A DNA stretch of 64,000 nt, taken from an uncultured Planctomycetaceae bacterium (GTDB lineage Bacteria; Planctomycetota; Phycisphaerae; SM23-33). The notes under the pieces were generated by a model. It made no database searches. It had not been told where the DNA came from and worked only from the letters and a program-made list of their open reading frames with translations. This document shows, piece after piece, positions 6,160-62,564 of this stretch (its first letter is position 1; every line of letters begins with the position of its first letter). Made by a program: the position numbers and the translations under genes. Location of the stretch: positions 2,296-66,295 of the forward strand of contig CAZLBC010000001.1 of the NCBI GenBank assembly GCA_964557575.1, read 5' to 3'.

Positions 6160-6362
6160 GGGCGGGCCTCCAAACGGTTGATGTTGCGCACAATCCTGTT
6201 TTATACATCGCCCGGATTGCGGTGTCCACACTCAATACATCGGGCAGGGAGGGCTAATCCGAACATAAACTTTTCGGGATTTTACAAAAAACATCACAAG
6301 TCGCTGGTTCCGTCCGGATTTTCAAACGAACTTGGAAACCCGGACGGACCCTGAAAAAATTT

Positions 6363-7892: not shown

Positions 7893-8348
7893 TCAAGAAT
7901 CTTCGAAATCGTCGTCGTGTCGTCCTTCGTGACGCGGTGATTCCGCGCCGAACCACCGGGGGGTCCCGTCGCGCGTCTTGGTGTGCATGAACCCCCATCC
8001 GCCGTCGTTCACGGCGTCGACGATCTGACGAAACGAAACCCACCCGTTTCCGTTCAGCGGCGGAACTTCGCCGTTCAGGATCATGTTCCGGATTTCCGGA
8101 TCGTCCGCGTGGTACGACGCCTCGGGCGTCAAAAGAAACAGGCTTTTCCCGATGTTGGACAAGGTGGGGCGTCCCTGCGCCTTGCGCTGGCGACGGACCT
8201 TGTGCCATATCCCGTTCACTAGAACAGCTTTACCAATATTGTACAGCTTCAAGTGGTGGACCGTAAGCATGTCGTCCGGGTCCCGGTCGTACGGTGTGCC
8301 AGACATTAATTCCAGAATTAAATTTCGTTTAGGTTCCCGTGTTGTCAT
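7893..8348 (-). CDS. hypothetical protein
   Basis: Long ORF, but no clear RBS at any of three candidate ATGs. Confidence 0.35.
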   Translation of the reverse strand: MTTREPKRNLILELMSGTPYDRDPDDMLTVHHLKLYNIGKAVLVNGIWHKVRRQRKAQGRPTLSNIGKSLFLLTPEASYHADDPEIRNMILNGEVPPLNGNGWVSFRQIVDAVNDGGWGFMHTKTRDGTPRWFGAESPRHEGRHDDDFEDS

Positions 8349-8418
8349 TGGAATTGAGCACCGATCCTCGTAAACTGTGAGCAGGGGAATTGATTATTCT
8401 AACTCAAAGGAGCGTGCG

Positions 8419-8559
8419 ATGCGCAGCGAAACCGCCAACCACGACAACATCAATTTTCTGAAATCCGCCCGAGCATTCACAATCACGATGTGGACGATAT
8501 CCATCGCGTCCGTCGTTTTGGGGATCGCCGCGCTCGTTCTCCGGGCGTTCGTCGACTAG
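8419..8559 (+). CDS. small membrane protein (46 aa)
   Basis: AAGGAG lies 6 nt upstream of ATG. Hydrophobic segment WTISIASVVLGIAALVL. Confidence 0.4.
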   Translation: MRSETANHDNINFLKSARAFTITMWTISIASVVLGIAALVLRAFVD

Positions 8560-9929
8560 CTGAAGAACATCCGGCGTATCTGCGTCCGGCGCGATTCCGT
8601 CAACGTCTCTTCGATTTCTTCGTCGTCTTCGTCTTCGTCTTCGTCTTCGTCTTCCGCGTCCACGTCGTCCGGCGGAACGTAGGCGTACGCCCGCTCCGCC
8701 TTCGCCCCGAACTGCGCCAAGAAATCCTCGAAGTCCTTCGAGAATTGTTCCCAGTCGACTTTCGGCTCCATGACGGCCGCCGTCTCGGGTTCCTCGAAAA
8801 GAATCGACTCTGAAACATTCGCGTATTCGCACTCGTCGGAATGCGCTTTGTCGTAGACTTCCCAATCAGCATCCTTGTCTAACCAGTCGTCATCATCGTG
8901 TTCCGTTTCTTTTTCTTCGAAGTCCAAAATCATACTGTCGTTCGAAATGCTTTGAATACCGAACTCAGCCGCGAGTTTGTCTGCCCACCCTTTATAAATC
9001 CTGCTCTTCCGGGGATTGTCGCCAATTCCAAACAGTTTCCATTTAAAACCATCCTCAAGAAGTGCTGGGATAATTTCGTCGTGAACGATCCTGTACACAG
9101 TGTGGAATATCCGGAGTGTTGCGAGTCCAGAGGCTTCTTCATCTGCGTCCCCGAACACGAAATCTTCGGGACCAAAATGAATTTCGTAGTCAAGTGGGCT
9201 TGTTGCGTACCAGCCGTCTCGCTTAACAATAAGTTTGAACTCGCCAACCGGGGTTGAAAACAGGTAATCTGGAAAAACTAATAGACCGTATTGGTTCTTT
9301 GTAACCTCACCCGTTGGTTTCCATGGATAAGGTTTGTCCCCGATCCGTTCAGCAATGCTGTAGTCTTCAAACAACGCGCGAAGAACGAGTTTCCGAGACT
9401 CCTCGACCTTGCCGGGTTTCGGCCGCCCCGCCACGGTGATATGAAATTCAAGCTCCATCCCGTTGTCGGCCGTCGGAAGCGGAGTCAGCCCCAACGACAT
9501 GCGCCTGCGTTGCAATTCCGGGGATTCGATACGGATGAACCAGACGCGGTCCATGGCGTCCCATCCGATCGGGTCGACATCGACCATGTCTTTCAGCCAA
9601 AATTCAAACTGGTCGCCGCCGGTGAGGATCGCGTCTTTCCACCCGTCCCTCCCGTAAACCTTCTGAAGCTCTTCAACCTCGGAAGCGCGGACGACGGTAA
9701 CATGCGGGTTGTCGTAGCGGGGTTCGCACGGAACGCCGTTATACTGCAGAGCTTGAAAAGCGGACGACGGGATTCCCTTGTCGACCTGCAGGAAAGCCCA
9801 TGGTCCGTTGTCGCCTTCCTCGGCCTTCAACGTTCCCGTGAATGTCACGGTTTGCGCCCGGAGTTCCGGCTCCCCGACGTAGGCTTCAACCAGCGAACGG
9901 ACATGCGCGCTCTGGTTTATTCGCATCAT
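8556..9929 (-). CDS. 2H phosphoesterase (LigT/CPDase-like) fused to a C-terminal domain with poly-acidic tail
   Basis: Two H-x-T/S-x motifs (PHVTVV and FHITVAG) about 80 aa apart in the N-terminal 180 aa. The C-terminal DEDEDEDEDEDDEE tail is encoded by a (GTCTTC)n repeat. Confidence 0.6.
   Translation of the reverse strand: MMRINQSAHVRSLVEAYVGEPELRAQTVTFTGTLKAEEGDNGPWAFLQVDKGIPSSAFQALQYNGVPCEPRYDNPHVTVVRASEVEELQKVYGRDGWKDAILTGGDQFEFWLKDMVDVDPIGWDAMDRVWFIRIESPELQRRRMSLGLTPLPTADNGMELEFHITVAGRPKPGKVEESRKLVLRALFEDYSIAERIGDKPYPWKPTGEVTKNQYGLLVFPDYLFSTPVGEFKLIVKRDGWYATSPLDYEIHFGPEDFVFGDADEEASGLATLRIFHTVYRIVHDEIIPALLEDGFKWKLFGIGDNPRKSRIYKGWADKLAAEFGIQSISNDSMILDFEEKETEHDDDDWLDKDADWEVYDKAHSDECEYANVSESILFEEPETAAVMEPKVDWEQFSKDFEDFLAQFGAKAERAYAYVPPDDVDAEDEDEDEDEDDEEIEETLTESRRTQIRRMFFS
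8621..8657. repeat. (GTCTTC)n hexanucleotide repeat
   Basis: Encodes the DE-repeat tail of the 2H phosphoesterase protein. Confidence 0.7.
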
Positions 9930-26567: not shown

Positions 26568-27293
26568 TCACGCTCCGTATCCGAGCTTATTGTTAACACC
26601 GTCGAATCCGTGCGCGCGGTACGCGGCTTCGACAGAGTCGCTCCAGTAGTCTTGGAACCTTGAAGGCGAACCTCCGGAGTATGTAAGCGTTTCAGCCCCG
26701 ATCGCGTCCCGGAGGCTTTCCAGCGAAACGCCGTCCGCGCCCACCGCCTCCACAATCGAAACTAATGCCGTGCGCTGCGCGTCCTCGCCGTTCAACCCGG
26801 ACACGTCGGCGAACGCGACTTCGCGCGCGTCCGACCGACCGACCCAGTCAAGCAGCGGACGGATTCCGTCGTGAAGGTTTCCGTGAAACCGATCAATGAA
26901 AACCCGAAGGTTCTCACTCGGCGTTTTTCCCGGGGAACGCCACCCCCACCGACCGCTCCGTTCACACCACCGCATGAACGACACAAGCGTATCTCGAATG
27001 TCCCGGTGAACGAACAGAACAACACCGTCGAAATCTCCGACGGTTTCCGGACCAATGTGACCCACGACGAACTCGCCGGGATTCAGAGAAGCGCACACTT
27101 CGGGCGCGCGGATTCCACAAGCGTATTTTTCTGGATTCTCTCGCGCGTTGCGGATGTCCGGGTTCGCCCCGTAATTGCTGACGAACCCCGTGGACAGGTG
27201 AAGTCCGCGATTGGCAAGTCCGATACGCTTCAAGACTTCGGCAACAAGATACGTTCCGGACTTCGGTATGCTGCAGACGACTGTTTGTTTCAT
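26568..27293 (-). CDS. sulfotransferase
   Basis: 5'-PSB motif CSIPKSGTY and 3'-PB motif RDIRDTLVS of PAPS-dependent sulfotransferases. Confidence 0.65.
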   Translation of the reverse strand: MKQTVVCSIPKSGTYLVAEVLKRIGLANRGLHLSTGFVSNYGANPDIRNARENPEKYACGIRAPEVCASLNPGEFVVGHIGPETVGDFDGVVLFVHRDIRDTLVSFMRWCERSGRWGWRSPGKTPSENLRVFIDRFHGNLHDGIRPLLDWVGRSDAREVAFADVSGLNGEDAQRTALVSIVEAVGADGVSLESLRDAIGAETLTYSGGSPSRFQDYWSDSVEAAYRAHGFDGVNNKLGYGA

Positions 27294-27946
27294 TCCTTGG
27301 CGTTTCCGTCCTCGATCTTCGGCAACCAATGCTTGCGACAACTCTCGTAAAAGTCCAGAAACTCTCCATGTTTTTCTTTGACGACTTCCAAAACAGCGTT
27401 CCGGTCGAACTCCTCGTTCCACGTTGTGAAGTTGTGCAAGGGGGAAGCGTCCACTTTCTCAAAGCCCGTGATCGCGGACAATTTGTCGAAGCTCGCCTGC
27501 ATGTGTTCCGCGAATCCGCAGAACAGGAACATTTCCGGACAAGGGTTCTTCGGAAGGTACTCCATAAGCCGTACCGGAAACCGTTCTGCGAAGTCCAGAA
27601 CGCCTTTGGGTTCCCCTTCGAAGTATTTCCCGTGTATCAGCATAGTGTCGCCTTTGACCAGCCAATTCTTTATCCAGTAAAAATAGAACGACGCCATGAT
27701 GGACACCGGGTCTCGAAGCCACGTGATCATTTGCCCCGGTTCAAACGTTTCGATCGCGCGCCCCTGCAACCGGTCGAAGTGCGTAAACACGAGCCGGTGT
27801 TTTTCACGATCGAACGCTTCTTCCTTCGAACACCACCAACTCTGGTCCTGCGTGAACCACTTCTTCCGAAGAAATATTCTGACGGCCGTCCCGGCGGTCT
27901 TCGGAACGTGCACAAAATAAAGTATTTTTTCCGGGGCGTACCGCAT
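27290..27946 (-). CDS. sulfotransferase-like protein (second paralog)
   Basis: HVPKTAGT PAPS-loop-like motif. ATGA-coupled to neighbours. Confidence 0.5.
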   Translation of the reverse strand: MRYAPEKILYFVHVPKTAGTAVRIFLRKKWFTQDQSWWCSKEEAFDREKHRLVFTHFDRLQGRAIETFEPGQMITWLRDPVSIMASFYFYWIKNWLVKGDTMLIHGKYFEGEPKGVLDFAERFPVRLMEYLPKNPCPEMFLFCGFAEHMQASFDKLSAITGFEKVDASPLHNFTTWNEEFDRNAVLEVVKEKHGEFLDFYESCRKHWLPKIEDGNAKE

Positions 27947-27971: not shown

Positions 27972-28625
27972 TCACTTCTTCTCGAACCAAACCGCTCCGT
28001 TGCCCCCGTCGACGGTGTTCAGCAAAACCTCGCCGAAATACTCGGCGACCGCCTTGCGACAACCCGCGAGGTTGTAATCGTCTATGATCACTATACCTCC
28101 CGAACTGACAAACGGGTACAGGTGTTCGAGGCAGACAAGCGTCGAAGAGTACAAATCGCCGTCCAGCCGCAGCAACGCAATCGGATCGCCGTCCCACAAC
28201 GGAACGGTGTGCTGAAACCATCCCTTGTGATACTGAAGAATTTCCTCCGGCACGCCCCACCGATCCATGAGGCGTTGAACGCCTTCCAACGAACAAACGG
28301 AGTGCCCCGAGGACACGAGTCTTCCGGCCGCGTCGGGAGCCTTCGGTCCGATTCCCGGCTGCTGGTCGTCTTCGGGACCGGCTTCGGGGATTCCCTCGAA
28401 CGAGTCGAACAGGTGAAACTTTCGCGGAGGACCGTCAGGGTCCAGTCCCATCTTCGCCAACGCCATGATCGCAACCTGCGCGCCGCGATAAACCCCGCAC
28501 TCCACAAAGTCTCCCGGAACGCCGTTCTTCAGAACACGCTCGGTCATTTCATGCGTGTGGCGGTACACCGGAGGAGGCGTCAACGCGTTGTTCATGACCA
28601 AGTCTACGATATCTTGCTTCTTCAT
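27972..28625 (-). CDS. TylF/MycF-family SAM-dependent O-methyltransferase
   Basis: GDFVECGVYRG, LFDSFEG, LRLDGDLY and GGIVIIDDY motifs. AAGGAAG RBS. Confidence 0.7.
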   Translation of the reverse strand: MKKQDIVDLVMNNALTPPPVYRHTHEMTERVLKNGVPGDFVECGVYRGAQVAIMALAKMGLDPDGPPRKFHLFDSFEGIPEAGPEDDQQPGIGPKAPDAAGRLVSSGHSVCSLEGVQRLMDRWGVPEEILQYHKGWFQHTVPLWDGDPIALLRLDGDLYSSTLVCLEHLYPFVSSGGIVIIDDYNLAGCRKAVAEYFGEVLLNTVDGGNGAVWFEKK

Positions 28626-29200
28626 TCTGCGGTCTTCCTTGCTATCAAAACCGGAGGATTCTGATGTTCGTGTTCCGGAAATTCAAACCACCGGGAAAGT
28701 TTATCCCGCCACCACGCCATGGGGTGAACGGTCAAATGCAGGTTCTCCACGCCTTCCGGCGCGGGCGTCGAAGCGTAATGGGTCGCGATCGTCATGAACA
28801 GCATGCCGCCCGGTTTCAACTTGTCGCTCCACGTTTCGAACGTCGGTTCGACGTCGAACTCCCGAAGATGCTCCAGCATGTCGAACGATGTGATGGCGTC
28901 AACGCGCCCGGGTACCGCGTCCAGATTCCACGCGCCTCCGTGCAAAAACGTTATTCCCGCAGGAACCGGATCGTGCCGATGTACGTCGACTCCGTACAAC
29001 CGAACAACATTCGCGTCGAACATCTTGAGAAAGTTGAACCGTCCGCAACCGCAGTCGATCATCGAAGGATTGTCGCGGTCCGACAGAAACCGGGATACGG
29101 ACGGCTGCAGTTCGCCGCCGTGATTCGTCGTTCCGTACTGTGGGTTTTCAGCATACACCTCGTCATACACGCGCCGGTAAAACGCTTCGTTCGCGCTCAC
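28622..29200 (-). CDS. class I SAM-dependent methyltransferase
   Basis: GTG start after GGAGGA. Motif I IDCGCGRFNFL; also DAITSFDMLEHL and LKPGGMLFM. Confidence 0.6.
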   Translation of the reverse strand: MSANEAFYRRVYDEVYAENPQYGTTNHGGELQPSVSRFLSDRDNPSMIDCGCGRFNFLKMFDANVVRLYGVDVHRHDPVPAGITFLHGGAWNLDAVPGRVDAITSFDMLEHLREFDVEPTFETWSDKLKPGGMLFMTIATHYASTPAPEGVENLHLTVHPMAWWRDKLSRWFEFPEHEHQNPPVLIARKTAE

Positions 29201-29946
29201 AAGTATTTCCTCCAGTCAACGGAAGGAAATACCTTCAGTCGCCCTCCCGTGCCGTTAAGTATCGTCATTTGAGGATTGGCGTCAGCCAACTTGGCCCAGT
29301 GTTTTAATGAAACTTCCAACGCGAGGTCGGTTGTCAATTTCTCGCCGTTCTCCTCTTTCTCGTACTGACGCGCCCGCGCTTCCATCCAAGGAAGAAGCCA
29401 CGCGTCTTCAGGCTGTCCGGGAAATTCGTAGAAGTATTTCTTTCCGTCCTCTACTTGACAGTCGTTTCCAAGAAGGATTATCGGACTGCACCCGAGAATG
29501 GCGGCGAAATGAACCGCGCACTGAATGGAAGAGTGCCCGTATATGAGATTCTTCGCGGAGGGGTCCATCAGCAGGGTTTCGTGAGTGCTGTCCGCGAACG
29601 CGTACAGCAAGTACCTGTACTGTGGTCGGTAAACTCCTCCCCACCAGTCAACGCACTGAATGTTTTGCGTCGCCATGACAATATCACAGTTCGCCCACCG
29701 AACCGTTTGCCAATGCTTTCGCCAGATTACCCGCCAGTCGCTTGAAAAGAAAAAAGGCGCGCTCGGAAACTTTACGATCGCGCTGTTCACGGCGATGACC
29801 GGTTTTCCCTTAAACGCATCTTGCGGAATGCTTCGAAGGCTCGGACCCGACGCCGCGACAAAACCGGGTTGGCCCTTGTACTGTCCGCGCACCGCGTGGA
29901 ACGGGTCGTTTTTATTATAAAAATCCGCTATCGAAAAAGGTTTCAT
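29197..29946 (-). CDS. DUF115/MptE-like (Maf-type) glycan-modification protein
   Basis: PVIAVNSAI...GHSSIQCAVHFAAILGCSPIILLGNDCQ resembles the 6-hydroxymethylpterin-diphosphokinase-like fold found in motility-accessory-factor glycosylation proteins. Confidence 0.45.
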   Translation of the reverse strand: MKPFSIADFYNKNDPFHAVRGQYKGQPGFVAASGPSLRSIPQDAFKGKPVIAVNSAIVKFPSAPFFFSSDWRVIWRKHWQTVRWANCDIVMATQNIQCVDWWGGVYRPQYRYLLYAFADSTHETLLMDPSAKNLIYGHSSIQCAVHFAAILGCSPIILLGNDCQVEDGKKYFYEFPGQPEDAWLLPWMEARARQYEKEENGEKLTTDLALEVSLKHWAKLADANPQMTILNGTGGRLKVFPSVDWRKYL

Positions 29947-30641
29947 TCCGGAACTTGCCCCATCCCTTGGTTTACGAAAAGAACGTGATCGGCGACTTCG
30001 GAATCCGGCGACGCGTAGACCATTTTAGACTTGTCGCTGTCTATCCAGTGCACGCCCATTCGCGCAGTTACAACGCTCATCGCGGTCTGATCATGCCGAT
30101 GGCCAAGCACGCGCGGATCGCTCGAACAAGAACCGTCGTTGTTGTTCCACGGACCCGGGAAGATGTTGCCATCATTCCCCATCTCGATCATCGTGTCAAG
30201 AAACGCGTTCGCCTTGTCGTTTCGAAAGTCAAGACCGACGATGCACCCCATCAAGTCCGTCATTTCCATGGCTTCGTCCCGGGTCAAACCAAGACGCTCC
30301 AACGCGGCGTCGTGGCACCACTGGCCGACTTTCCACCCGTTGTACTGAAAATACCATCCGGTCTTATCGATGTATTCCAGTATCGGGTCGATCGGCTTCA
30401 TGACGGCGATCGCCGAGTCGAGCCAAAGCACGACGTCGTGCCCGTTCTCCTTTGCAATGCGGATTGCGTGGAACTTGAACGCGTACGGCGACGCTTCATG
30501 CGTCGGACTCCCCGGAGGAAACTCGTTGGTCCATTTAAGGAGCGGAACTTCGGGAGAGTGACGATTGAGCGTTCGTTCGAGTCTTCGCTGCCCTCTCGGG
30601 TACCAGCCCCCGACCGCGACGTTGACAACAACGGGATTCAC
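29943..30641 (-). CDS. putative glycosyltransferase
   Basis: GTG start after AGGAGA. Only weak similarity to nucleotide-sugar transferases. Confidence 0.4.
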   Translation of the reverse strand: MNPVVVNVAVGGWYPRGQRRLERTLNRHSPEVPLLKWTNEFPPGSPTHEASPYAFKFHAIRIAKENGHDVVLWLDSAIAVMKPIDPILEYIDKTGWYFQYNGWKVGQWCHDAALERLGLTRDEAMEMTDLMGCIVGLDFRNDKANAFLDTMIEMGNDGNIFPGPWNNNDGSCSSDPRVLGHRHDQTAMSVVTARMGVHWIDSDKSKMVYASPDSEVADHVLFVNQGMGQVPE

Positions 30642-30651
30642 GCTTGTTCTC

Positions 30652-32910
30652 CTATTCGTGTCTGCGCGTCCGTCTGGACGACTTGCGATCGTGCGGGTCC
30701 TCCCGTTCGGCCTTCACGCCTTCCGTGCGAAAAGACGACCGATGGTGCGACGGCGGACCGTCCTCGTTTTTCTCGGCGGTTTCCCGCGCCTGCTGTTCCC
30801 GGATTTGCTGGCCGAAGACGGACGCCGCTCCTTCCGGCGTCGGCCGGTAAACGTACAACGGAACGGGGATGAACCGTTCGGTCTTGATCATTCCCGATTT
30901 CGCCATGCGCTCCGAATAATCGGCGTCCTCGCCGAAACTGGCGTTAATGAAGGGGAACTTGATCGCGATCGACCGGCGAACGGCGTTCCAGTGGTTCGGC
31001 GGCCGGAAGTACATGTGATCGTTCTCGAAATAATGGTCGTACATCAGGCTGTGAATGAACGGCTTGGGCGGGTCGGACATCATCATTCCGCCGAACGTGA
31101 CCGCGTCCACGTCTCCGGCGGCCAACGCGCCGAGGATCGTCTCCATGTACTTGTCAGAGACGTCGTCGTCATCGTCGAGGAACATGATGTATTCCCCGCG
31201 AGCGCGTTGAATCAAATTCGTTCGCTTCTCGCCGATCGTCCGCTGTCCGGAGTCCTCGTCGATCAGAATTTCAACGCTCCGTTCCATCCGGATCGCGCGA
31301 ATCTGGTCCGCGATCTTCCCGCACAACGCCGTGCGCATGTCGCGCCGCTTTACCATCGTCGGCATCAGGATCGATAAGAGCATGCGCGGCTGTACGCCGC
31401 CGAAATCCTCGGATTTTCGCCGAAGGTAGACCGGTTGGTCGATGTGGTAAAACTTGGAATCCCGGGAGTACAACTCGTCGGTAATCTCCGCGCCGTGCGT
31501 GGACGGGTGGACGTGGTGAACAACCGACCAGTCAATGTACGCCTGCCGGGCGAGGAGACCGCCGACGTCCGTGAACTCGTTGTCGCACCACATCCCCTGA
31601 TACGCGGGATTGTACGCGTACCCGAAGCGGTCGTAATACTTCTTTCCGACGATGACCTGCGTGTTCAACCGCTTGCCGACGCCGCCGTCGTGAAACCAAA
31701 GGCTCCCGTCGGTATCCGGGAAATACTTCTCCATGGCCATGAGGATCGCGTCGTCCCACCCGGCGAACTGGGGAATGACGTCGTCTTGCGCGAGCATCAT
31801 GACGTCCCACGGTTCCGTAACGTCGTTGATCCCCCGATTGAACGCGTCGATCTTGTTCCTCGACGAACCGCCGACGATCGTGATCTCGCATCCGTACGCT
31901 TCACACGCGGCGACGCGCTGCAGGATTTCCTCGGTCATGGTTTCATCGTCATCGTCGTACACGACGAGAAAGTGAACCTCGTTGCGCCGCGAAAGCTGCC
32001 TGCAGTATTTTTTCTCGAACACGTCGAGGAACTTCTCCGGACGTGAACGCGTCGGAAACTTGACCAAGAGCCGGTGCATCCGGCGAACGCCGCCGCCGAG
32101 TTGCAAGAAGTTGGACGCCGGACGTTCCGGCGCGTTGCCTCGTCCGACCATGTTCTCGATGTTGTGGCGCGCGAAATCGTTCCGGTTCGGTTCGTGCGCT
32201 TTGTCGTACAAGAGACTGTCGAGGTAATCCGCCGGGTTTTCCTCGGACTTCAGTTTCGATATCGGCACGACCGTCTTTCCGAACGACACGGCCTTGGACA
32301 CGGGACGTTCCGTTTCCCGCGCCGGATCGTAGAACACGACACGGGAACACATGATTGCCTTGTCAATGTCGTCCGGCATGCAGACCGAATAGTTCACCGG
32401 GAACTGCGACAGCGTGTCCACGACATCCTTGGTCACCGGGGGGAGGATCGTGAACTGCTGCCGGTTCTTCAAAAAAGCCTGAATCAACTTCAGCCATCCG
32501 GGGTCGTCCACCGGAAGGCCGTACACGCACACTTCGGATGACGGAACATTGAAAGACACCGGTGCCCACGCGCTGTTTCCGACCACGCTGCGAAGCGTGT
32601 CGACGTCGCTTTTCACGGCCGTGATGATCCCGGCGAACCGGCCTTCCTTGGCAGCCGTCATGGAACGGATCAGGAGTTTCCGATCGACGGACGCGACCAG
32701 TCCGAACACGCGCCCCGGAAACTGTTTGCACAAGTACCGGGTGCCAAACGCGTCCGGGTCGTCGGCGACGAAAAACCAGTCGTACCGGGACAGGCTGAGG
32801 TGCATCGCCCGGTCGATCGGGTAGAAATCGAACCCCTGCGCGACGGCGAGGGCCTCGGCATACGCGTAAGCGGCTTTCGTCTTTGTCGACGCGATTACAC
32901 AGGCTTTCAT
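30652..32910 (-). CDS. multidomain glycosyltransferase (two GT-A/GT2-like DxD domains)
   Basis: LSILMPTMVKRRD...IMFLDDDDDVSDKY and VHFLVVYDDDDETMTEEIL show GT2 DxD signatures. 752 aa. Confidence 0.7.
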   Translation of the reverse strand: MKACVIASTKTKAAYAYAEALAVAQGFDFYPIDRAMHLSLSRYDWFFVADDPDAFGTRYLCKQFPGRVFGLVASVDRKLLIRSMTAAKEGRFAGIITAVKSDVDTLRSVVGNSAWAPVSFNVPSSEVCVYGLPVDDPGWLKLIQAFLKNRQQFTILPPVTKDVVDTLSQFPVNYSVCMPDDIDKAIMCSRVVFYDPARETERPVSKAVSFGKTVVPISKLKSEENPADYLDSLLYDKAHEPNRNDFARHNIENMVGRGNAPERPASNFLQLGGGVRRMHRLLVKFPTRSRPEKFLDVFEKKYCRQLSRRNEVHFLVVYDDDDETMTEEILQRVAACEAYGCEITIVGGSSRNKIDAFNRGINDVTEPWDVMMLAQDDVIPQFAGWDDAILMAMEKYFPDTDGSLWFHDGGVGKRLNTQVIVGKKYYDRFGYAYNPAYQGMWCDNEFTDVGGLLARQAYIDWSVVHHVHPSTHGAEITDELYSRDSKFYHIDQPVYLRRKSEDFGGVQPRMLLSILMPTMVKRRDMRTALCGKIADQIRAIRMERSVEILIDEDSGQRTIGEKRTNLIQRARGEYIMFLDDDDDVSDKYMETILGALAAGDVDAVTFGGMMMSDPPKPFIHSLMYDHYFENDHMYFRPPNHWNAVRRSIAIKFPFINASFGEDADYSERMAKSGMIKTERFIPVPLYVYRPTPEGAASVFGQQIREQQARETAEKNEDGPPSHHRSSFRTEGVKAEREDPHDRKSSRRTRRHE

Positions 32911-49058: not shown

Positions 49059-49634
49059 CTATGTCTTGACGAACGGCTGCCACGCGGGACGGGTCGCCGC
49101 CAGTTCAGCCAGTCGACGGTACGCCATCCACGAAGGCTTCTTCGGATCGACCCGAAGCCGCATTCCGGCTTGCTTCGGAGTCCGGTCAGCCTTGGTTTCG
49201 TTGCACTTCCGGCAGGACGCCACGCAGTTTTCCCACGTGGTCCTGCCTCGCTGGGACCGGGGAACGACGTGATCGATCGTCAACTCCTTCTTTTCGAACT
49301 GCTCGCCGCAGTAGGCGCAGCAGTTGTGCTCCCGCTTGAAGACCGCCGACTTGGAGTAGTTCACGGTGCGCTGCGGAACCTTGTCGTACTCCGCGAGAAC
49401 GATCACTTCCGGACATTCGAACTTGAAATCGCGCGCGCCGGGAACAAACGGCCGATCGGGCCGCACGCCGCGCTCGGCCCAGTCGTCCCACGTGTACGTT
49501 ATGAACGTCTCGTGGTCGACGACCGTCGCGCCGCCGGTGTATAGGTGGCCGATCGCGTCAGCGACCGTCGACACCGCGATCGGCATCCAGTTCCGGTTCA
49601 GAACCAGAACCGACATCTGAAGCACGTCCTGCAT
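49059..49634 (-). CDS. HNH homing endonuclease (free-standing)
   Basis: AAGGAGGG RBS. CAYCGEQF...LTIDHVVPRSQRG...WENCVASCRKCNETK HNH core. Confidence 0.7.
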   Translation of the reverse strand: MQDVLQMSVLVLNRNWMPIAVSTVADAIGHLYTGGATVVDHETFITYTWDDWAERGVRPDRPFVPGARDFKFECPEVIVLAEYDKVPQRTVNYSKSAVFKREHNCCAYCGEQFEKKELTIDHVVPRSQRGRTTWENCVASCRKCNETKADRTPKQAGMRLRVDPKKPSWMAYRRLAELAATRPAWQPFVKT

Positions 49635-49935
49635 CGCTGACGCCCTCCTTTGAAACAGGGACCCTTGAAAATTTTTCCCGAAGGAAATCGATATCACACC
49701 AGATGATTTTCCCTTCGAGCGTCAACAGGACGCCCGGATGATTCGGCGTTCGAACTGGGAGTCGAATGTGAACGGGGAAATCGCCGCCGGGCGGGACAGC
49801 CCGGACCTTGGCTTTCTTTCCATCCGCTCGATTGTACCAGACCCCCTCCCATTCGCTTCGGTGGTCCCGGGACGCCTTCTTTGGATTTCGCCGCTTCTGC
49901 GGACGCTTCTTGCGATTCTTTTTTTGTTTCGGCAT
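49558..49935 (-). CDS. hypothetical protein with polybasic N-terminus
   Basis: GAGGG RBS. The 3' end overlaps the HNH gene by about 77 nt. Confidence 0.4.
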   Translation of the reverse strand: MPKQKKNRKKRPQKRRNPKKASRDHRSEWEGVWYNRADGKKAKVRAVPPGGDFPVHIRLPVRTPNHPGVLLTLEGKIIWCDIDFLREKFSRVPVSKEGVSDAGRASDVGSGSEPELDADRGVDGR

Positions 49936-51924: not shown

Positions 51925-52749
51925 TTATAACACGAGCCGGAAACCGTCGCCAACAGACAGGGTGGACACGTACGACATGGCCTTCTCGCGCGCTTCCAAC
52001 AGGCGGACGAACTCTTTTTGAGAGCCGCCCTTGTCGGGGTGCGCGACCTTGGCTTTCTCGCGGAAGTTGCGCATGACGACGCGCTTCGCCGCTTCCATGT
52101 CGTCCGGGAGTTCCACGCGGCTGACGTCGAGGACGTCCCACCACCATTCCGACGGAGGCTTGACAGGTTCCGGTTCCCTCGCGGGATCAGGTTCCGACCG
52201 AGCCGATCCGAGTTTCGGAATGAAGTGGATTACGCTCAACGACTTGTCGGAGTCCGGGTAGCCGAACATGGTCAACGTCGTCTTGAACGTCAACCCGTGG
52301 TGCGCCGCGACGACAAGCGGTTCAATCGCCTGTTCGCGGACTCCGGGATTCGTCCGAAGCTGGACGTACTCCCTGACCTCGGCGAGCGTCGGCTTGTCCG
52401 CCTTCGACTTCAAAAAGACGTCCGCCGCGTGGTAAATCTCCCACGGGGTGGACAGCCAGCTTCCGACTGTTTCCTCCCCGTCACCATCCGGTCTTTGCGG
52501 GAACTCGCCCTGCGGAAAATGCACGTACTCGGCGGTGTACCAAGGTTCGCGTTCGTACACGCCCATTCGGCTCAATTTCATCTCCGGCTTCACGTTATAC
52601 GCGACGACGGGCATCCCCGTGGCGGTGCGTCCCTTAAACACGGTTCGAGTTCCCATGAAGTCCGTCTTCTCGTACGTGTAAACGTAGACGGGGCGCGGTC
52701 TAGGCGGTTCTCGCGTGTAGTCGGTGAACAGGATAAGAAGCTCGTTCAT
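51925..52749 (-). CDS. J-domain (DnaJ-like) protein
   Basis: C-terminal ...KVAHPDKGGSQKEFVRLLEAREKA with an HPD motif. A promoter-like motif lies upstream. Confidence 0.55.
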   Translation of the reverse strand: MNELLILFTDYTREPPRPRPVYVYTYEKTDFMGTRTVFKGRTATGMPVVAYNVKPEMKLSRMGVYEREPWYTAEYVHFPQGEFPQRPDGDGEETVGSWLSTPWEIYHAADVFLKSKADKPTLAEVREYVQLRTNPGVREQAIEPLVVAAHHGLTFKTTLTMFGYPDSDKSLSVIHFIPKLGSARSEPDPAREPEPVKPPSEWWWDVLDVSRVELPDDMEAAKRVVMRNFREKAKVAHPDKGGSQKEFVRLLEAREKAMSYVSTLSVGDGFRLVL

Positions 52750-52797: not shown

Positions 52798-52872
52798 TGG
52801 TACTCCCGGCAGGAGTCGAACCTGCATCTCGACATTCGGAGTGTCGCGCCTTGTCCGTTGGGCCACGGGAGT
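52798..52872 (-). tRNA. tRNA-Arg (anticodon CCG)
   Basis: Stem CGACA/UGUCG with loop CUCCGAA. CCA encoded. Confidence 0.6.
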
Positions 52873-52877
52873 AAAAA

Positions 52878-52954
52878 TGGCATCCGGCGAGGGACTCGAA
52901 CCCCCAATCGCGACATTCGTAGTGTCGTGCCTTATCCAGTTAGGCCAGCCGGAT
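52878..52954 (-). tRNA. tRNA-Arg (anticodon ACG)
   Basis: D-arm GCCU-AACUGGAUA-AGGC. Loop CUACGAA. Confidence 0.6.
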
Positions 52955-52995
52955 GCATTCGCGGAACGTTATCGGTTGTCAAAGAGCATTCAAAA

Positions 52996-53068
52996 TTACC
53001 CCGGCAGGGTTCGAACCTGCAACCTTCTGATTCAAAGTCAGAAACGCTTCCAGTTGCGCCACGGGGTA
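52996..53068 (-). tRNA. tRNA-Gln (anticodon UUG)
   Basis: U1:A72. Stem UCUGA/UCAGA with loop CUUUGAA. Confidence 0.65.
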
Positions 53069-53076
53069 CCGAATAT

Positions 53077-53152
53077 TGGAGGCCCCAGCCGGAGTCGAAC
53101 CGAGCGATAAACGATTTTGCAAACCGTCCCCTTGCCGCTTGGGTATGGAGCC
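53077..53152 (-). tRNA. tRNA-Cys (anticodon GCA)
   Basis: Loop UUGCAAA. U73 discriminator and CCA. Confidence 0.6.
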
Positions 53153-53158
53153 ATGGAG

Positions 53159-53232
53159 GGTGACCGACGAGGTTCGAACTCGTACTCTTCTGACTCACAA
53201 TCAGGTATGTTGCCAATTACACTACGGTCACC
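53159..53232 (-). tRNA. tRNA-His (anticodon GUG)
   Basis: Extra G-1 pairing with C73. Loop UUGUGAG. Confidence 0.65.
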
Positions 53233-53349: not shown

Positions 53350-54291
53350 TCAAGCCTGCGACAGTTTCAGCCAGATCGCGACCATGATTTCGTCGACGAC
53401 TTCGTCAACGGTGCGATCCTTGGTTTCAACAACGCAGTCGGCTTCCGCCGGTTCTTCGTACGGATCGTCGATCCCGGTGAATCCCTTGATCTCACCGGCG
53501 CGGGCTTTCGCGTACAAGCCCTTGACGTCCCGCGCTTCGCACTCTTCGAGACTGGTGGCGACGTGGACCATGAAGAACCGCTTGTCGCCGATCAGGTCTC
53601 TCGCGGACTGCCGGGCTTCCGCATACGGCGAGATCGCCGCCGTGATCGCGATTCCTCCGACGTCGGCGACCGACTTCGCCACGAAGGAAAGCCTTCGAAT
53701 GTTTTCGTCCCGGTCCTCTTTCGAGAATCCGAGTCCCCGGTTCAAGTTCGTCCGGACCTCGTCGCCGTCCAGAACCTTCACCCGGTGTCCGAGTTCGTTC
53801 AACCGGCTTTCAAGAGCCACAGCGATAGTGCTCTTGCCAGAACCTGACAGCCCGGTAAACCAGATGACAAGGCCATTGCCTGCGTCACCACCGGTTGCGA
53901 GGACTTCCGCCGTCGCCATTGGAACCTTTTCCCGCCACGACTCGTCGCCTTCCGCCATGAGCGTTCGGACTTGGGTCGCCGAGATTCCGCCGATCTCCGG
54001 CGGCACGACGTCCTGTAAGTCACGAACTTCATAGCCGACCTTTCGTCCGACGACCACCGCCGCGATGTCCGGGATGGCCATGACGCGAACACAACCGGTT
54101 TTGATTTCGTCGGAGTACACGGCGCGGATCATCGCGATCCGCTCTCCCAGCGTGTACGGGTCTCCGTCGTTGACCGGCGTGTCCCGCACGGCGATCAAGA
54201 CGTTCTCGTCGCGATCCAGAGCTTGCTGGATCAGCCATTTGTGGCCATTGTGGAACGGCTGCCACCGGCCGATGTAAAGCGCGTACTTCAT
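53350..54291 (-). CDS. cysC: bifunctional HxGH-nucleotidyltransferase-like / adenylylsulfate (APS) kinase
   Basis: N-terminal [12 protein letters not shown] ((H/T)xGH nucleotidyltransferase). C-terminal [13 protein letters not shown]...LDGDEVR...AISPY matches the APS kinase core. GAAGGGAG RBS. Confidence 0.75.
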
Positions 54292-54356
54292 TCGTAAACT
54301 CCCTTCAAAAAAATTTGCGCTGAAGAGAGGATAGCAACGCCGCGCTTTTCATTCAA

Positions 54357-54433
54357 TGGTGCTCCGGGTGAGAGTCGAACTCACACTGTACAGTGTCTGA
54401 AACTGCTCCCTCTGCCAATTGGGGTACCGGAGC
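54357..54433 (-). tRNA. tRNA with Leu anticodon CAG, class I architecture
   Basis: Same D-arm and T-arm family as 49957..50030. Stem GCAGU/ACUGU with loop UUCAGAC. A73 and CCA. Confidence 0.5.
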
Positions 54434-54438
54434 GTAGA

Positions 54439-54512
54439 TGTCCACGGTGAGAGTCGAACTCACACTTTCATGATCCTTAGTCATGTCCCTCTGCCAATTG
54501 GGGTACGTGGAC
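54439..54512 (-). tRNA. tRNA with Leu anticodon AAG, class I architecture
   Basis: Stem CAUGA/UCAUG with loop CUAAGGA. A73. Confidence 0.5.
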
Positions 54513-54518
54513 GAATTT

Positions 54519-54594
54519 TGGCTCTCCGGGGTGGACTCGAACCACCAACCTACTGCTTAACAGGCAGTCGCTGCTACCATTGAGCTACCGGAGA
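54519..54594 (-). tRNA. tRNA-Asn (anticodon GUU)
   Basis: Stem ACUGC/GCAGU with loop CUGUUAA. CCA encoded. Confidence 0.6.
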
Positions 54595-54601
54595 ACGTAA
54601 A

Positions 54602-54674
54602 TGGACCGGAGGGGAATCGAACCCCTGACCTTCTACTTGCAAAACAGATGCTCTACCGATTGAGCTACCAGCCC
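54602..54674 (-). tRNA. tRNA-Ala (anticodon UGC)
   Basis: G3:U70 wobble pair. Loop UUUGCAA. Confidence 0.65.
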
Positions 54675-57171: not shown

Positions 57172-57486
57172 TCAATCGTTGGGTTTCGGGTGGATTCGGG
57201 CCAGAATGTCGACTTGAGAAATCAGCATGTAATCCTCGTCGTCGACTTTGATTTCGGTTCCCCCGTACATCGCGATGATGACGCGGTCTCCGCTTTTGAG
57301 GGGGCACTCCCCGTCCCCGTCCTCGACGGGAACATTGATCACGGTCGCCTTGTTCGTGGCCTGCTGCGCCGTGTGCGGCAGTATAATGCCGCCTTTCGAG
57401 ACGTCTTCCGGCTTGTCTTTTTGAACGAGAATACGATCGTTCAACGGTTCAAGTCGGCACGTCTTCTTTTTCGCTTCGGACGTCAT
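57172..57486 (-). CDS. groES: co-chaperonin GroES
   Basis: GGAAGGAG RBS. LEPLNDRILVQK...GGIILPHTAQ...GDRVIIAMYGGTEIKVDDEDYMLISQVDILA matches the Cpn10 family. Confidence 0.8.
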   Translation of the reverse strand: MTSEAKKKTCRLEPLNDRILVQKDKPEDVSKGGIILPHTAQQATNKATVINVPVEDGDGECPLKSGDRVIIAMYGGTEIKVDDEDYMLISQVDILARIHPKPND

Positions 57487-57533
57487 TCCGGACTCCTTCC
57501 TGAAAAAATGGTGGATCGTGCTAAAAAATTTTT

Positions 57534-57640
57534 GACCCTGACAGGATTCGAACCTGCACTGCATTAGTTTCTTGCACCACTTCACAGCCCGGCTCTTGGT
57601 GCAACACACCGGGGCGTCTGCCATTTCCGCCACAGGATCA
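57534..57640 (-). other. tRNA-like element (about 107 nt) with unresolved fold
   Basis: 3' end GCAGG-UUCGAAU-CCUGU-CAGGGUC-A pairs with GAUCCUG 107 nt upstream. D-loop AAAUGGCAGA resembles the Leu-type family. Confidence 0.25.
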
Positions 57641-57648
57641 AATTCTAA

Positions 57649-57670
57649 ACACACACACACACACACACAC
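57649..57670. repeat. (AC)11 dinucleotide microsatellite
   Basis: ACACACACACACACACACACAC in the non-coding region between the tRNA-like element and the tmRNA. Confidence 0.8.
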
Positions 57671-57852
57671 GACTTTGGCGAACCGCAGCGTAACGCATCC
57701 GCACCGACCGCCATTGACCCTACTCCGGTAACGCGGCTCAGTCCTGACCAAGCCCCTTCGGGTCCGCGCCGACCTGATGGATGCCGAACTATAGCGTCAC
57801 GTGCCGGACTTACAACATCACGTACTCGACGATCTCAAAGCCGTGAATATTT

Positions 57853-59386: not shown

Positions 59387-59444
59387 AAAAAAGCCCTCCG
59401 TTTCGCAACCAAGTATGCGACGGAGGGCCTCACGTGTCAAATAA

Positions 59445-59515
59445 TGCGTCGGACGGGGATCGAACCCGTTACCACGTTTTTAGAGAACGCCGCCTATCCA
59501 TTCGGCTTCCGACGC
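59445..59515 (-). tRNA. tRNA with anticodon CUA (amber-suppressor-like)
   Basis: Acceptor GCGUCGG/CCGACGC, A73. Anticodon stem GCGUU/AACGU with loop CUCUAAA (U33, anticodon CUA, purine 37). T-arm ACGGG-UUCGAUC-CCCGU. Confidence 0.5.
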
Positions 59516-59523
59516 AATTCGAC

Positions 59524-61463: not shown

Positions 61464-62564
61464 TTATTGCGCGCCTTTTCTACGATTACAATCCGCGCAA
61501 AGCATACGTCCATTATTCGTATCCGTCTTGCCGCCTTGAGACCATGGAGTAATATGGTCGGCGTGCATTTCCGCCAGATCGCATTCTTTATCACATTGCG
61601 CGCATTGGCCGCTTTGTTTCTCATACATCGTGCGTCGTTGCTTCTTATCGAAAGCTCGAATGTTGAGATGTTTTACTTCTCCCGTGAGAACATACGCATA
61701 AATCCCGCGTTTATTCGTCACGTCTTCATCAGCCATCAACACGGAAATCCGATCTTCCAACTCTTCAGCATCAAGCGTGTCATTTTTGTGAGCTTCGTAC
61801 ATTTCATTCCACGGCAAGCCCTTCATCTCTTTGCGGTATTCCGTAAATACCGTTTGGACCCAGCGTATCACTTTTTTGAAGTAGTTCCATAGAGAATTTG
61901 CATTTTGCCGGTGCTGATGGGTCGCCATGTAAGATCGAATGTGCATGTCGTTCGGCTGATTCTCTTTCGTCGCCCACTTGATGGCCAATTCAAGCAATTC
62001 TTGCCGAATCGGACTGCCTTTGACGTAGGCCCCTCCAAGTTGATAAGCCGCACAGCTTCTCCGAGAAAACCGTCTCTTCGCGTCGGACAACCATGGACCA
62101 GTATATACAGCGTTGCGTAGTTCTTGTTCAGTTAATGGTTCTCCGGCAATGTTAACGGTCTTGAACCATTCCAATAACTCGGTATGACTTCCCGAGCACT
62201 GATAAATCATGAGTTCGTAGTCAAGAATGCGGGACTGGGTCTCTTCACCCAAGTTGGCAAAGTTCATTGCATTGACTTGGAACATGCCGGAAACGTATTG
62301 GCAGATTGAAATAGTGCGTTGCTGTCCGTCGAGGATTTCGAAAGTGTCATCATCATGTTTGGCCCAGTACATGATATTAAGGGGCAAGCCTTTGAGCACG
62401 GAGTCAATAACCGCATTACGTTGGGCGGCGTCATAAACGAACTCTCGTTGATATGGCGGTCGGATGTCTAACAGGCCGTTGTAGCCTTTGACTCCTTCTT
62501 CCGCGTTATCTTCGTACCCGGCCACAACTTCGCGAATCGGGATATTGTGCAGTTCAACTCTCAT
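61464..62564 (-). CDS. DUF262 + HNH (GmrSD-like type IV restriction endonuclease-like)
   Basis: N-terminal ILDGQQRT (DGQQR, DUF262/ParB-like NTPase). C-terminal HADHITPWSQGG...N...CADCNRRKG (HNH/DUF1524). Low GC compared with its surroundings. Confidence 0.7.
   Translation of the reverse strand: MRVELHNIPIREVVAGYEDNAEEGVKGYNGLLDIRPPYQREFVYDAAQRNAVIDSVLKGLPLNIMYWAKHDDDTFEILDGQQRTISICQYVSGMFQVNAMNFANLGEETQSRILDYELMIYQCSGSHTELLEWFKTVNIAGEPLTEQELRNAVYTGPWLSDAKRRFSRRSCAAYQLGGAYVKGSPIRQELLELAIKWATKENQPNDMHIRSYMATHQHRQNANSLWNYFKKVIRWVQTVFTEYRKEMKGLPWNEMYEAHKNDTLDAEELEDRISVLMADEDVTNKRGIYAYVLTGEVKHLNIRAFDKKQRRTMYEKQSGQCAQCDKECDLAEMHADHITPWSQGGKTDTNNGRMLCADCNRRKGAQ

Follow-up and report, generated by a model that had tools for sequence, protein, structure and literature searches.

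A 313-residue phage fusion of a small HxGH nucleotidyltransferase with APS kinase is a probable PAPS synthase

We have analysed a gene encoding a two-domain protein of 313 amino acids in a stretch of 64,000 nucleotides from contig CAZLBC010000001.1 (assembly GCA_964557575.1), hereafter termed the window, which was deposited under an uncultured Planctomycetaceae bacterium and is part of a large phage. The protein joins a small HxGH nucleotidyltransferase to an adenosine 5'-phosphosulfate (APS) kinase and is probably a bifunctional 3'-phosphoadenosine 5'-phosphosulfate (PAPS) synthase, converting sulfate and two ATP to PAPS. For the family to which the small domain belongs, there is a good probability of a role in sulfate activation. 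It also seems likely on balance that this domain of ~130 residues, apparently derived from NadM, adds to Sat and CysDN a third class of ATP sulfurylase that had gone unrecognised, spread through phages, bacteria and archaea, and that it fills gaps in which sulfate activation appears to be missing. If so, no complete PAPS synthase smaller than the phage protein would be known. The gene and its parts are as follows.

53350-54291, minus strand: fusion gene, complete, 313 amino acids (open reading frame (ORF) list and domain matches; identical to database protein P0001)
54299-54306, minus strand: ribosome-binding site GAAGGGAG, read off the sequence 7 nt 5' of the ATG at 54291
53893-54291, minus strand: mini HxGH nucleotidyltransferase, residues 1-133, predicted sulfate adenylyltransferase (HxGH in the 8-17 stretch, R36, GRKVGY at 82-87, GISATQVR at 102-109)
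54241-54252, minus strand: codons of H14-N-G-H17, the HxGH nucleotide-binding signature (from the translation; H14, G16 and H17 do not vary among 178 family domains)
53878-53892, minus strand: flexible linker, residues 134-138 (in the full-length model, residues 135-138 have pLDDT below 50)
53377-53877, minus strand: APS kinase (CysC) domain, residues 139-305 (PF01583, TIGR00455 and alignment to 5cb6)
53827-53853, minus strand: P-loop GLSGSGKST, residues 147-155 (from the translation and alignment to 5cb6)

The C-terminal APS kinase

As judged from its sequence, the C-terminal domain is very probably a canonical APS kinase that converts APS to PAPS. Residues 139-305 cover profile positions 2-151 of the 152 in Pfam PF01583 (E 4e-65, 218.9 bits against a cut-off of 21.1), the apsK model TIGR00455 is matched with 227.7 bits (cut-off 138.7) and the best solved structure is the Synechocystis APS kinase 5cb6 (E 1e-53). 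The domain is 56% identical to a solved APS kinase. The P-loop GxxGxGK(S/T), LDGDxxR, DRxENIRR, ISPY, KGLYxKAR and FTGxxxPYExP motifs are all present, in an alignment to 5cb6 that is gapless at the motifs. An earlier sequence-only reading of this DNA had assigned the half to the CysC type; every motif that it named was found and both model cut-offs were passed.

The substrate of the window kinase should be APS because of this identity, the apsK cut-off passed and the presence of all APS-contacting motifs. The same features speak against what we regard as the main rival, in which the domain pair makes another 3'-phosphorylated nucleotide donor, the first domain transferring a nucleoside monophosphate onto a non-sulfate acceptor (selenate, sulfite, thiosulfate, phosphate or one of phosphoramidate type) and the second phosphorylating the 3'-OH. 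There is precedent for such chemistry in Campylobacter, in which Cj1415 is CysC-like and Cj1416 is a nucleotidyltransferase. The Cj1415-Cj1418 route to 3'-phospho-CDP-amidate follows a comparable logic (PMC11800397). Together with the genomic evidence given below, the features of the window kinase make this rival unlikely.

The N-terminal nucleotidyltransferase

The sequence-only reading had placed an HxGH signature in a small N-terminal domain, and this is borne out. Residues 1-133 hold the nucleotide-binding motifs FHNGH (13-17) and ISATQVR (103-109; ISxTxxR type), and the Pfam CTP_transf_like model PF01467 is passed with 31.7 bits against a cut-off of 21. When a profile of the family was compared with the Protein Data Bank (PDB), the M. 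jannaschii nicotinamide mononucleotide (NMN) adenylyltransferase (NMNAT) 1f9a was recovered at E 7.5e-13 and the M. thermoautotrophicum NMNAT was also matched, phosphopantetheine adenylyltransferases (PPATs) coming next at ~E 2e-3. No ATP sulfurylase in the PDB matched the family profile at E <= 10. An AlphaFold model of the domain built with 63 sequences (pLDDT 89.3, pTM 0.81) has three long strands, and a Foldseek comparison with the viral predicted structures of BFVD returned weak 'cytidyltransferase-like' matches. Sequence and model alike suggest that the domain is a cut-down descendant of the archaeal/NadM-type NMNATs which has only the superfamily fold in common with Sat.

These matches lend weight to an alternative in which the N-terminal domain is still an NMN/NaMN adenylyltransferase serving NAD salvage during infection, its fusion to APS kinase being without pathway meaning. 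Archaeal and NadM NMNATs are the best matches in sequence and fold, the HxGH, ISxTxxR and PDIE motifs are held in common and NadM-type genes are often carried by phages. The domain nevertheless scores well under the NMNAT cut-offs, with 65.1 bits against 127 for NF002243 and 51.4 against 181.2 for TIGR01527, and good alignment extends over residues 4-78 only. After the common PDIE motif, residues 77-109 of the M. jannaschii enzyme (MjNMNAT) correspond in the HMMER alignment to ~8 family positions (SVNYGRGV), over which the profile alignment passes straight from residue 76 to residue 110 of MjNMNAT, the family profile advancing from 74 to 83 only, a net loss of ~25 residues. Homology to NMNAT picks up again at GYEV and the SxTExR helix. 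The segment spanning 77-109 presumably comprises, as in the 1ej2 and 1hyb structures, a nicotinamide-stacking helix with Asn/Trp and a strand that terminates in SGNP. In the model of the domain, residues 75-97 form a well-ordered loop with neither helix nor strand. The sequence-only reading had named an alignment to NMNAT with an intact NAD-binding site as a result that would speak against it. The first part stands, as the domain does align to 1f9a; the second does not, the 77-109 segment being replaced by ~8 residues. With the cut-offs missed and the NMN segment gone, the domain would appear to lie outside the functional NMNAT family, and continued NMNAT function, to which the genomic neighbours described below are also opposed, is very unlikely.

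A search with the N-terminal domain recovered 66 proteins, mostly of ~130-140 residues and ~40-55% identity, and in an exhaustive profile search clusters at the 50% identity level numbered 119 with a threshold of E <= 1e-30 and 1040 with one of E <= 1e-10. The family is present on at least 538 IMG/VR contigs and in 98 GTDB species representatives, complete genomes such as OZ243957.1, OY970254.1 and OZ243041.1 carry it, and its members bear the database names 'cytidyltransferase-like protein' or 'nicotinamide mononucleotide adenylyltransferase'. Across 178 family domains G8, R9, H14, G16, H17, R36, G82, R83, V85, G86, Y87, S104 and R109 are invariant, R36, G82, R83, V85, G86 and Y87 being newly invariant relative to MjNMNAT, while Q11, P12, D37, P45, D75, I76, N80, Y/F81 and T106 are nearly so. 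This strict conservation of the catalytic motifs suggests that the small domain is an active nucleotidyltransferase and not a relic. The window protein retains every absolutely invariant residue.

Such conservation also bears on a third possibility, that the small domain has no catalytic role of its own and serves as a nucleotide-binding or oligomerisation module which regulates or stabilises the APS kinase, the host supplying APS. Fungal ATP sulfurylase carries an APS-kinase-like allosteric domain, a precedent for regulatory use of a pathway-related domain, and the model of the whole protein, which has a pTM of 0.57 and disorder in the linker at 135-138, is without defined inter-domain geometry. 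The window protein also departs from the family at conserved N80 and Y81. Against this, the residues of the HxGH catalytic signature are invariant in the 178 domains, which come from phages, bacteria and archaea, and the domain also occurs as a gene on its own and in an operon that lacks any APS kinase, as detailed in the following section. A purely regulatory module is, of the explanations weighed here, a highly improbable one.

Gene fusions and genomic neighbours

The two domains are fused in both orders, the nucleotidyltransferase preceding APS kinase in P0001-P0008, P0010 and P0011 and following it in P0009, P0012-P0014, P0018 and P0036. Among the best 147 cluster representatives, 68 are free-standing, 43 have the kinase first, 15 have the nucleotidyltransferase first and 21 carry other extensions, so that a fusion of APS-kinase type is present in 58 of the 147. 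In all three of the free-standing members whose contig was examined, an APS kinase gene immediately adjoins.

Neighbouring genes were surveyed at 160 loci, 80 of them viral (IMG/VR, of at least 538 matches) and 80 from genomes (GTDB, of 98 matches), by scanning six-frame ORFs with home-built HMMs in which Salmonella cysDN served as the CysD and CysN reference. The genome loci come from Saprospiraceae, Pyrinomonadaceae, Marinimicrobia, marine Bacteroidota, Nitrospirales, Patescibacteria, Poseidoniales, Methanosarcinales and others, and Acidobacteriota are also among the lineages that carry the family. An APS-kinase-type domain, usually adjoining or fused, lies within 1.5 kb on the same strand at 147 of the 160 loci (76/80 viral, 71/80 genome). 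Neither Sat nor CysD nor CysN was detected by the HMM scans at any of the 160 loci or in the window. Sulfotransferase-like ORFs are present in the flanks of 49 of the 160, and Sulfotransfer_3/1 accounts for two of the 20 largest neighbour clusters. The sulfotransferase gene directly adjoins in L006, L007, L010-12 and L016, amid glycosyltransferases, methyltransferases and sugar-nucleotide enzymes. The partners that form neighbour clusters across the loci are APS kinase, sulfotransferases, MetK, AdoHcyase and sugar-nucleotide enzymes; no Nampt/NadV or Nudix gene of NAD salvage is found among the 20 largest clusters. The linkage to APS kinase and the lack of salvage genes in these clusters count against NMNAT function, and neighbours that are Pfam sulfotransferases count against a donor other than PAPS. 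A sugar-phosphate nucleotidyltransferase for the glycan cluster was also considered and rejected, the near-universal partner being APS kinase and not enzymes of sugar pathways.

At four Nitrospirales loci (L156, L133, L149 and L158) APS kinase is absent from the surrounding 8 kb. Each of them has, on one strand, sulfite reductase (NIR_SIR fused to TusA), cysH and the nucleotidyltransferase in that order (4641-8414 in L156, the nucleotidyltransferase at 7917-8414), and a TrpD-like Glycos_transf_3 gene comes next. The CysH sequence carries the motifs CCRVRK, SIGCAPCT and ECGLH (CCxxRK, SxGCxxCT, ECGLH), which we take to be the mark of the Fe-S-containing APS reductases. A pathway with such a reductase needs no APS kinase and here misses only an ATP sulfurylase. 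The nucleotidyltransferase sits in the ATP-sulfurylase slot of an assimilation operon in which sulfate activation is the sole missing step. There is no role for an NMNAT in an operon of sulfite reductase and cysH, a module that regulates APS kinase would have no partner there, and a grouping in which the enzyme acts on sulfate-derived intermediates is at odds with a donor built on another acceptor. The idea put forward in the sequence-only reading, a minimal enzyme for sulfate activation plus phosphorylation, agrees with this comparative evidence, namely the fusions in both orders, the linkage at most loci and the Nitrospirales operon; what changes is the ancestry of the small domain, which is apparently NMNAT-derived and not a miniature Sat.

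Phosphatase domains are further partners. A mini-HAD phosphatase of ~115 residues (DFDGV...SSRP...DDRGYKF) forms the C-terminus of APS kinases or diverged kinases beside the nucleotidyltransferase at L013 (2993-3940), L026, L032, L063 and L106, such mini-HAD-carrying APS kinases occurring in some marine phages, and in P0286 a DHHA1-type phosphoesterase is fused to the nucleotidyltransferase. Phosphatases of the HAD and DHHA1 classes include 3'-phosphoadenosine 5'-phosphate (PAP) phosphatases and pyrophosphatases. The mini-HAD domain could be either of these and, if they have one or other activity, both partners would help a PAPS pathway.

Several other arrangements were observed. DUF2061, a small membrane domain, turns up repeatedly: P0229 has it fused to the nucleotidyltransferase, and in L013-L015 (2784-2996) it is encoded just upstream of the APS kinase. 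The APS kinase of L039 (4911-5624) has a hydrophobic N-terminal extension, unverified, which may be DUF2061. In three Methanosarcinales metagenome-assembled genomes (MAGs; L137, L160 and L163) and one Nanoarchaeia MAG (L147), a fusion with the nucleotidyltransferase first is followed by a separate second APS kinase gene (~7995-9490). On a 286-kb bacterial contig (L016, 7484-10149), APS kinase and nucleotidyltransferase genes are divergent from genes for an acetyltransferase, a Sulfotransfer_3 protein and a small protein with a Nif11 domain; Nif11 being like the leaders of ribosomally synthesised and post-translationally modified peptides (RiPPs), this cluster hints at a sulfated peptide natural product. 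The most divergent fusion with the kinase first, P0036, lies in an integrase-bounded island (L004, 7651-10954, and L005) directly after a TIR_2-domain gene and a gene for a 374-residue protein of unknown function, which could be a defence-island context.

Sulfotransferases of the phage

Predicted consumers of PAPS are encoded in the window, just downstream of the portal gene.

26568-27302, minus strand: sulfotransferase 1, Sulfotransfer_1-like, predicted PAPS consumer (PKSGT and RDIRDTLVS motifs)
27290-27946, minus strand: sulfotransferase 2, Sulfotransfer_2-like, predicted PAPS consumer (HVPKTAGT and LRDPV motifs; 13-nt overlap with the start of sulfotransferase 1)
27972-32910, minus strand: adjoining glycan-modification genes, comprising a TylF-type O-methyltransferase, a second methyltransferase, an MptE-like gene, an ORF of unknown function and a 752-residue multi-glycosyltransferase (Pfam, PHROGs)

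The sequence-only reading had spoken of sulfotransferases 26 kb away, and these two candidates are borne out by their motifs and homologues. Neither has a Pfam match at E <= 0.01 or a PDB sequence match, sulfotransferase 1 reaching only E 0.055 with PF00685. Full-length homologues of sulfotransferase 1 (P0190-P0194, 29-37% identity) do carry PF00685, with E values down to 1e-23. Sulfotransferase 2 matches the PF03567 protein that adjoins the P0009 fusion (pairwise BLASTP, E 2e-5) and was recovered by jackhmmer seeded with the PF03567 protein of L007. Two further pairwise comparisons for the candidates were uninformative.

Proposed reaction and points that weigh against it

In the reaction that we propose for the bifunctional PAPS synthase, the N-terminal domain would hold ATP via the HxGH and ISxTxxR motifs, and sulfate would attack the alpha-phosphate to give APS with release of pyrophosphate. 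ATP sulfurylase activity of the small domain is inferred from genomic context and conserved residues. On the NadM/archaeal-NMNAT scaffold the NMN-side segment would have been lost and a Gly/Arg loop put in its place, and a putative sulfate site may comprise R36, which follows strand 2, R83 in the replacement loop and the G82-Y87 loop itself. Shrinkage of the acceptor from NMN to a tetrahedral oxyanion would fit the retained ATP half, the lost enclosure of nicotinamide riboside and the new invariant arginines. The APS kinase domain would next add a phosphate to the 3'-OH of APS, yielding PAPS and drawing the unfavourable first step forward. The equilibrium of ATP sulfurylase lies far on the side of ATP and sulfate, which would account for genes that are fused or overlap with that of APS kinase and so couple the two steps tightly, as known PAPS synthases do. 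The two phage sulfotransferases in the glycosyltransferase and methyltransferase cluster would draw on this PAPS, making sulfation by the phage independent of the host's regulated APS supply. The sulfated target, as a guess, would be virion or cell-surface glycans.

A number of observations weigh against sulfate activation by the small domain. Its closest sequence and fold matches are, as described, NMN adenylyltransferases, and the resemblance to ATP sulfurylase is slight: PF01747 is matched below its gathering score, with 13.6 bits (E 0.046) against 24.3 and over residues 11-36 only, although another family member, P0242, gives 23.8 bits on the C-terminal part of that model. An hhalign comparison of the family with a Sat alignment produced no meaningful alignment, a weak negative given that the Sat alignment was shallow (5 sequences). 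The Sat-specific QxRN and GRDHAG motifs are missing from the fusion protein, which has GRKVGY, and there is no N-terminal extension to hold the PUA-like domain of Sat. The function proposed for the domain is read wholly from context and residue patterns, and the placement of the sulfate site is conjecture.

The window protein itself deviates from the family. The consensus is DIESVNYGRGVGY, and the window protein and P0002, which are 81% identical, differ there: both have V80-V81 where 173 of the 178 family members have Asn then Tyr/Phe, and E77 and S78 are also Ala in both. In view of these changes at 77, 78, 80 and 81, the activity of the window protein may be reduced or altered.

Genomic context also holds points against the proposal. 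The absence of Sat and CysDN refers to the examined loci and the window alone. The window sulfotransferases lie 26 kb from the fusion gene and do not adjoin it. Supply of PAPS to them by the fusion is therefore plausible but circumstantial. In several relatives a sulfotransferase gene does directly adjoin. In a distinct subgroup with strongly diverged APS-kinase-like kinases, finally, which includes L002 (3584-4321, Xylella phage Sano gp35), L003 (3590-4321, Stenotrophomonas phage DLP_6 gp227), L038, L048, L064, L082 and L085, kinases that are fused to or adjoin the nucleotidyltransferase pass PF01583 at 61 bits with the lid motifs absent, and the neighbours are MazG, ThyX, DNA methylase, PD-(D/E)XK and DUF1599. 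The chemistry of this subgroup may be other than PAPS synthesis, so that the proposal for the family should not be carried over to it, and APS-kinase-like kinases diverged in this way, beside ThyX, DNA methylase and DUF1599, favour the alternative of a different 3'-phosphorylated donor. A cysteine dioxygenase gene is found near the subgroup locus of Sano.

Setting of the gene in the phage genome

The fusion gene has tRNA-His (end at 53231) on one side and tRNA-Leu (start at 54357) on the other, all three on the same strand.

52798-53231, minus strand: downstream tRNA block of five genes, Arg-ccg, Arg-acg, Gln-ttg, Cys and His (ARAGORN)
54357-54674, minus strand: upstream tRNA block of four genes, Leu-cag, Leu-aag, Asn and Ala (ARAGORN)

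The sequence-only reading had described an ORF inside a tRNA array. The ORF is real, starts with an ATG at 54291 on the minus strand that is preceded by a ribosome-binding site, and is flanked by these five and four tRNA genes. Its GC content at third codon positions (GC3) is 0.75, and the codon-position GC pattern is as in the adjoining genes. A role in tRNA repair or modification, suggested by the position, was rejected, as relatives lack any association with tRNA arrays and the domains are metabolic.

The window contains 23 tRNA genes and nearly all of its genes are on the minus strand, among them phage genes for a portal protein, a ribonucleotide reductase with an HNH insertion, a helicase and SbcCD; the record that holds the identical protein P0001 is 198,081 bp long. 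When three stretches, together 53 kb of the window, were compared by Megablast with 50,697 phage records, no near relative was revealed, only short tRNA stretches being matched. One tRNA called by ARAGORN at 59444-59516 (minus strand) has the anticodon CUA ('tRNA-Pyl') and would be an amber suppressor. In 54 hand-picked ORFs of the window the stop codons are TGA in 33, TAA in 14 and TAG in 7, and wholesale recoding of TAG is not evident.

Other genes of the window were observed in passing. A 274-residue ORF in the tRNA array (51925-52749, minus strand) ends in a J-domain-like stretch, KAKVAHPDKGGSQKEFVRLLEAREKA, with an HPD motif, and has no Pfam match at E <= 0.01. A phage homologue of GroES/Cpn10 (57172-57714, minus strand; PF00166, E 2.5e-22) has an N-terminal extension of ~85 residues. 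In the ribonucleotide reductase ORF (2527-6231, minus strand, 1234 residues), the HNH endonuclease segment occupies about residues 531-598, suggesting an intein or a homing-endonuclease insertion. Further HNH genes lie at 49059-49697 and 61464-62564, the second of which is fused to a GmrSD_N domain.

Significance

Sulfate activation is the entry to sulfur assimilation and to all PAPS-dependent sulfation. If the proposed function is correct, sulfate activation by phages and by many lineages of marine and soil origin would escape metabolic reconstructions that score sat and cysDN. Phage 'cysC' genes classed as auxiliary metabolic genes (AMGs) would need to be re-read, as those of the present class would form part of a complete PAPS-making unit with sulfotransferases and glycan-modification genes. 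This would suggest sulfated phage or host-surface glycoconjugates and not boosted cysteine synthesis. The family would also provide a clear case of neofunctionalisation via deletion of a substrate pocket, and a single-chain PAPS synthase of 313 residues would have appeal as a means of regenerating PAPS during enzymatic sulfation.

Comparison with known systems

The fusion resembles the Sat-APS kinase PAPS synthases (human PAPSS1/2, Aquifex aeolicus 2gks, Thiobacillus denitrificans 3cr8, model NF004040), which hold an adenylyltransferase and an APS kinase in one chain and likewise occur in nature in both domain orders. The kinases are homologous: NF004040 aligns to residues 99-305 and 2gks, 3cr8 and 1x6v are matched at E ~1e-45. 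The activating modules differ. That of the fusion has ~133 residues, in contrast to the ~200-residue catalytic domain plus PUA-like domain of Sat, so that the whole protein has 313 residues against roughly 550-630. It is also closer to NMNAT, under the PF01747 cut-off and without QxRN and GRDHAG; common to the two is the HxGH alpha/beta phosphodiesterase fold.

With the archaeal/NadM NMNATs (MJ0541, 1f9a; M. thermoautotrophicum, 1ej2; NadM-Nudix, 2qjt) the family shares the GRxQPFHxGH, NPFT, PDIE, GYEV and SxTExR motifs. It departs from them by the net deletion of ~25 residues between PDIE and the GYEV strand and by the replacement of GIGSAQ after strand 2 with AVRDxP, in which the Arg is invariant. 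Its genomic partners, too, are sulfur-pathway genes and not the NAD-salvage genes expected of NadM. Joining an HxGH adenylyltransferase to a P-loop kinase in one short pathway is also the design of NadR (NMNAT and ribosylnicotinamide kinase, NRK) and of CoA synthase (PPAT and dephospho-CoA kinase, DPCK), the kinase of the latter phosphorylating the adenosine 3'-OH of the adenylylated product. The fusion differs from both in having APS kinase in place of NRK or DPCK and in its predicted acceptor, an inorganic anion and not NMN or phosphopantetheine. The reaction proposed, sulfate + ATP -> APS + PPi, is that of CysDN, which also has cysC as its operon partner (Salmonella cysDNC being the reference), but the folds are unrelated, CysDN consisting of an N-type ATP pyrophosphatase and a GTPase.

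The open-access literature yielded no account of this family, of the fusion or of any ATP sulfurylase that is small or alternative, and one literature match, the cyanobacterial NMNAT-C, is unrelated to the family. The family is apparently unannotated, as well as widespread. A 2018 survey of genomes from ANME, the anaerobic methanotrophic archaea, and from methanogens lists only Sat and CysDN as types of sulfate-activating enzyme, and the source of APS and PAPS was unclear in many of the genomes surveyed; ANME-2c has cysC, marine ANME yielded no Sat and CysDN was reported only for ANME-1 and ANME-2b (PMC6286981). The three Methanosarcinales MAG loci of our set carry the fusion with the nucleotidyltransferase first, the second APS kinase gene following it. 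Phage cysC genes are described, in part of one report, as widespread, transcribed and AMGs of assimilatory sulfate reduction (PMC10914622). That part of the account does not mention a small nucleotidyltransferase partner, whereas the kinase studied here belongs to a two-domain enzyme that appears tied to sulfotransferases and not to cysteine synthesis.

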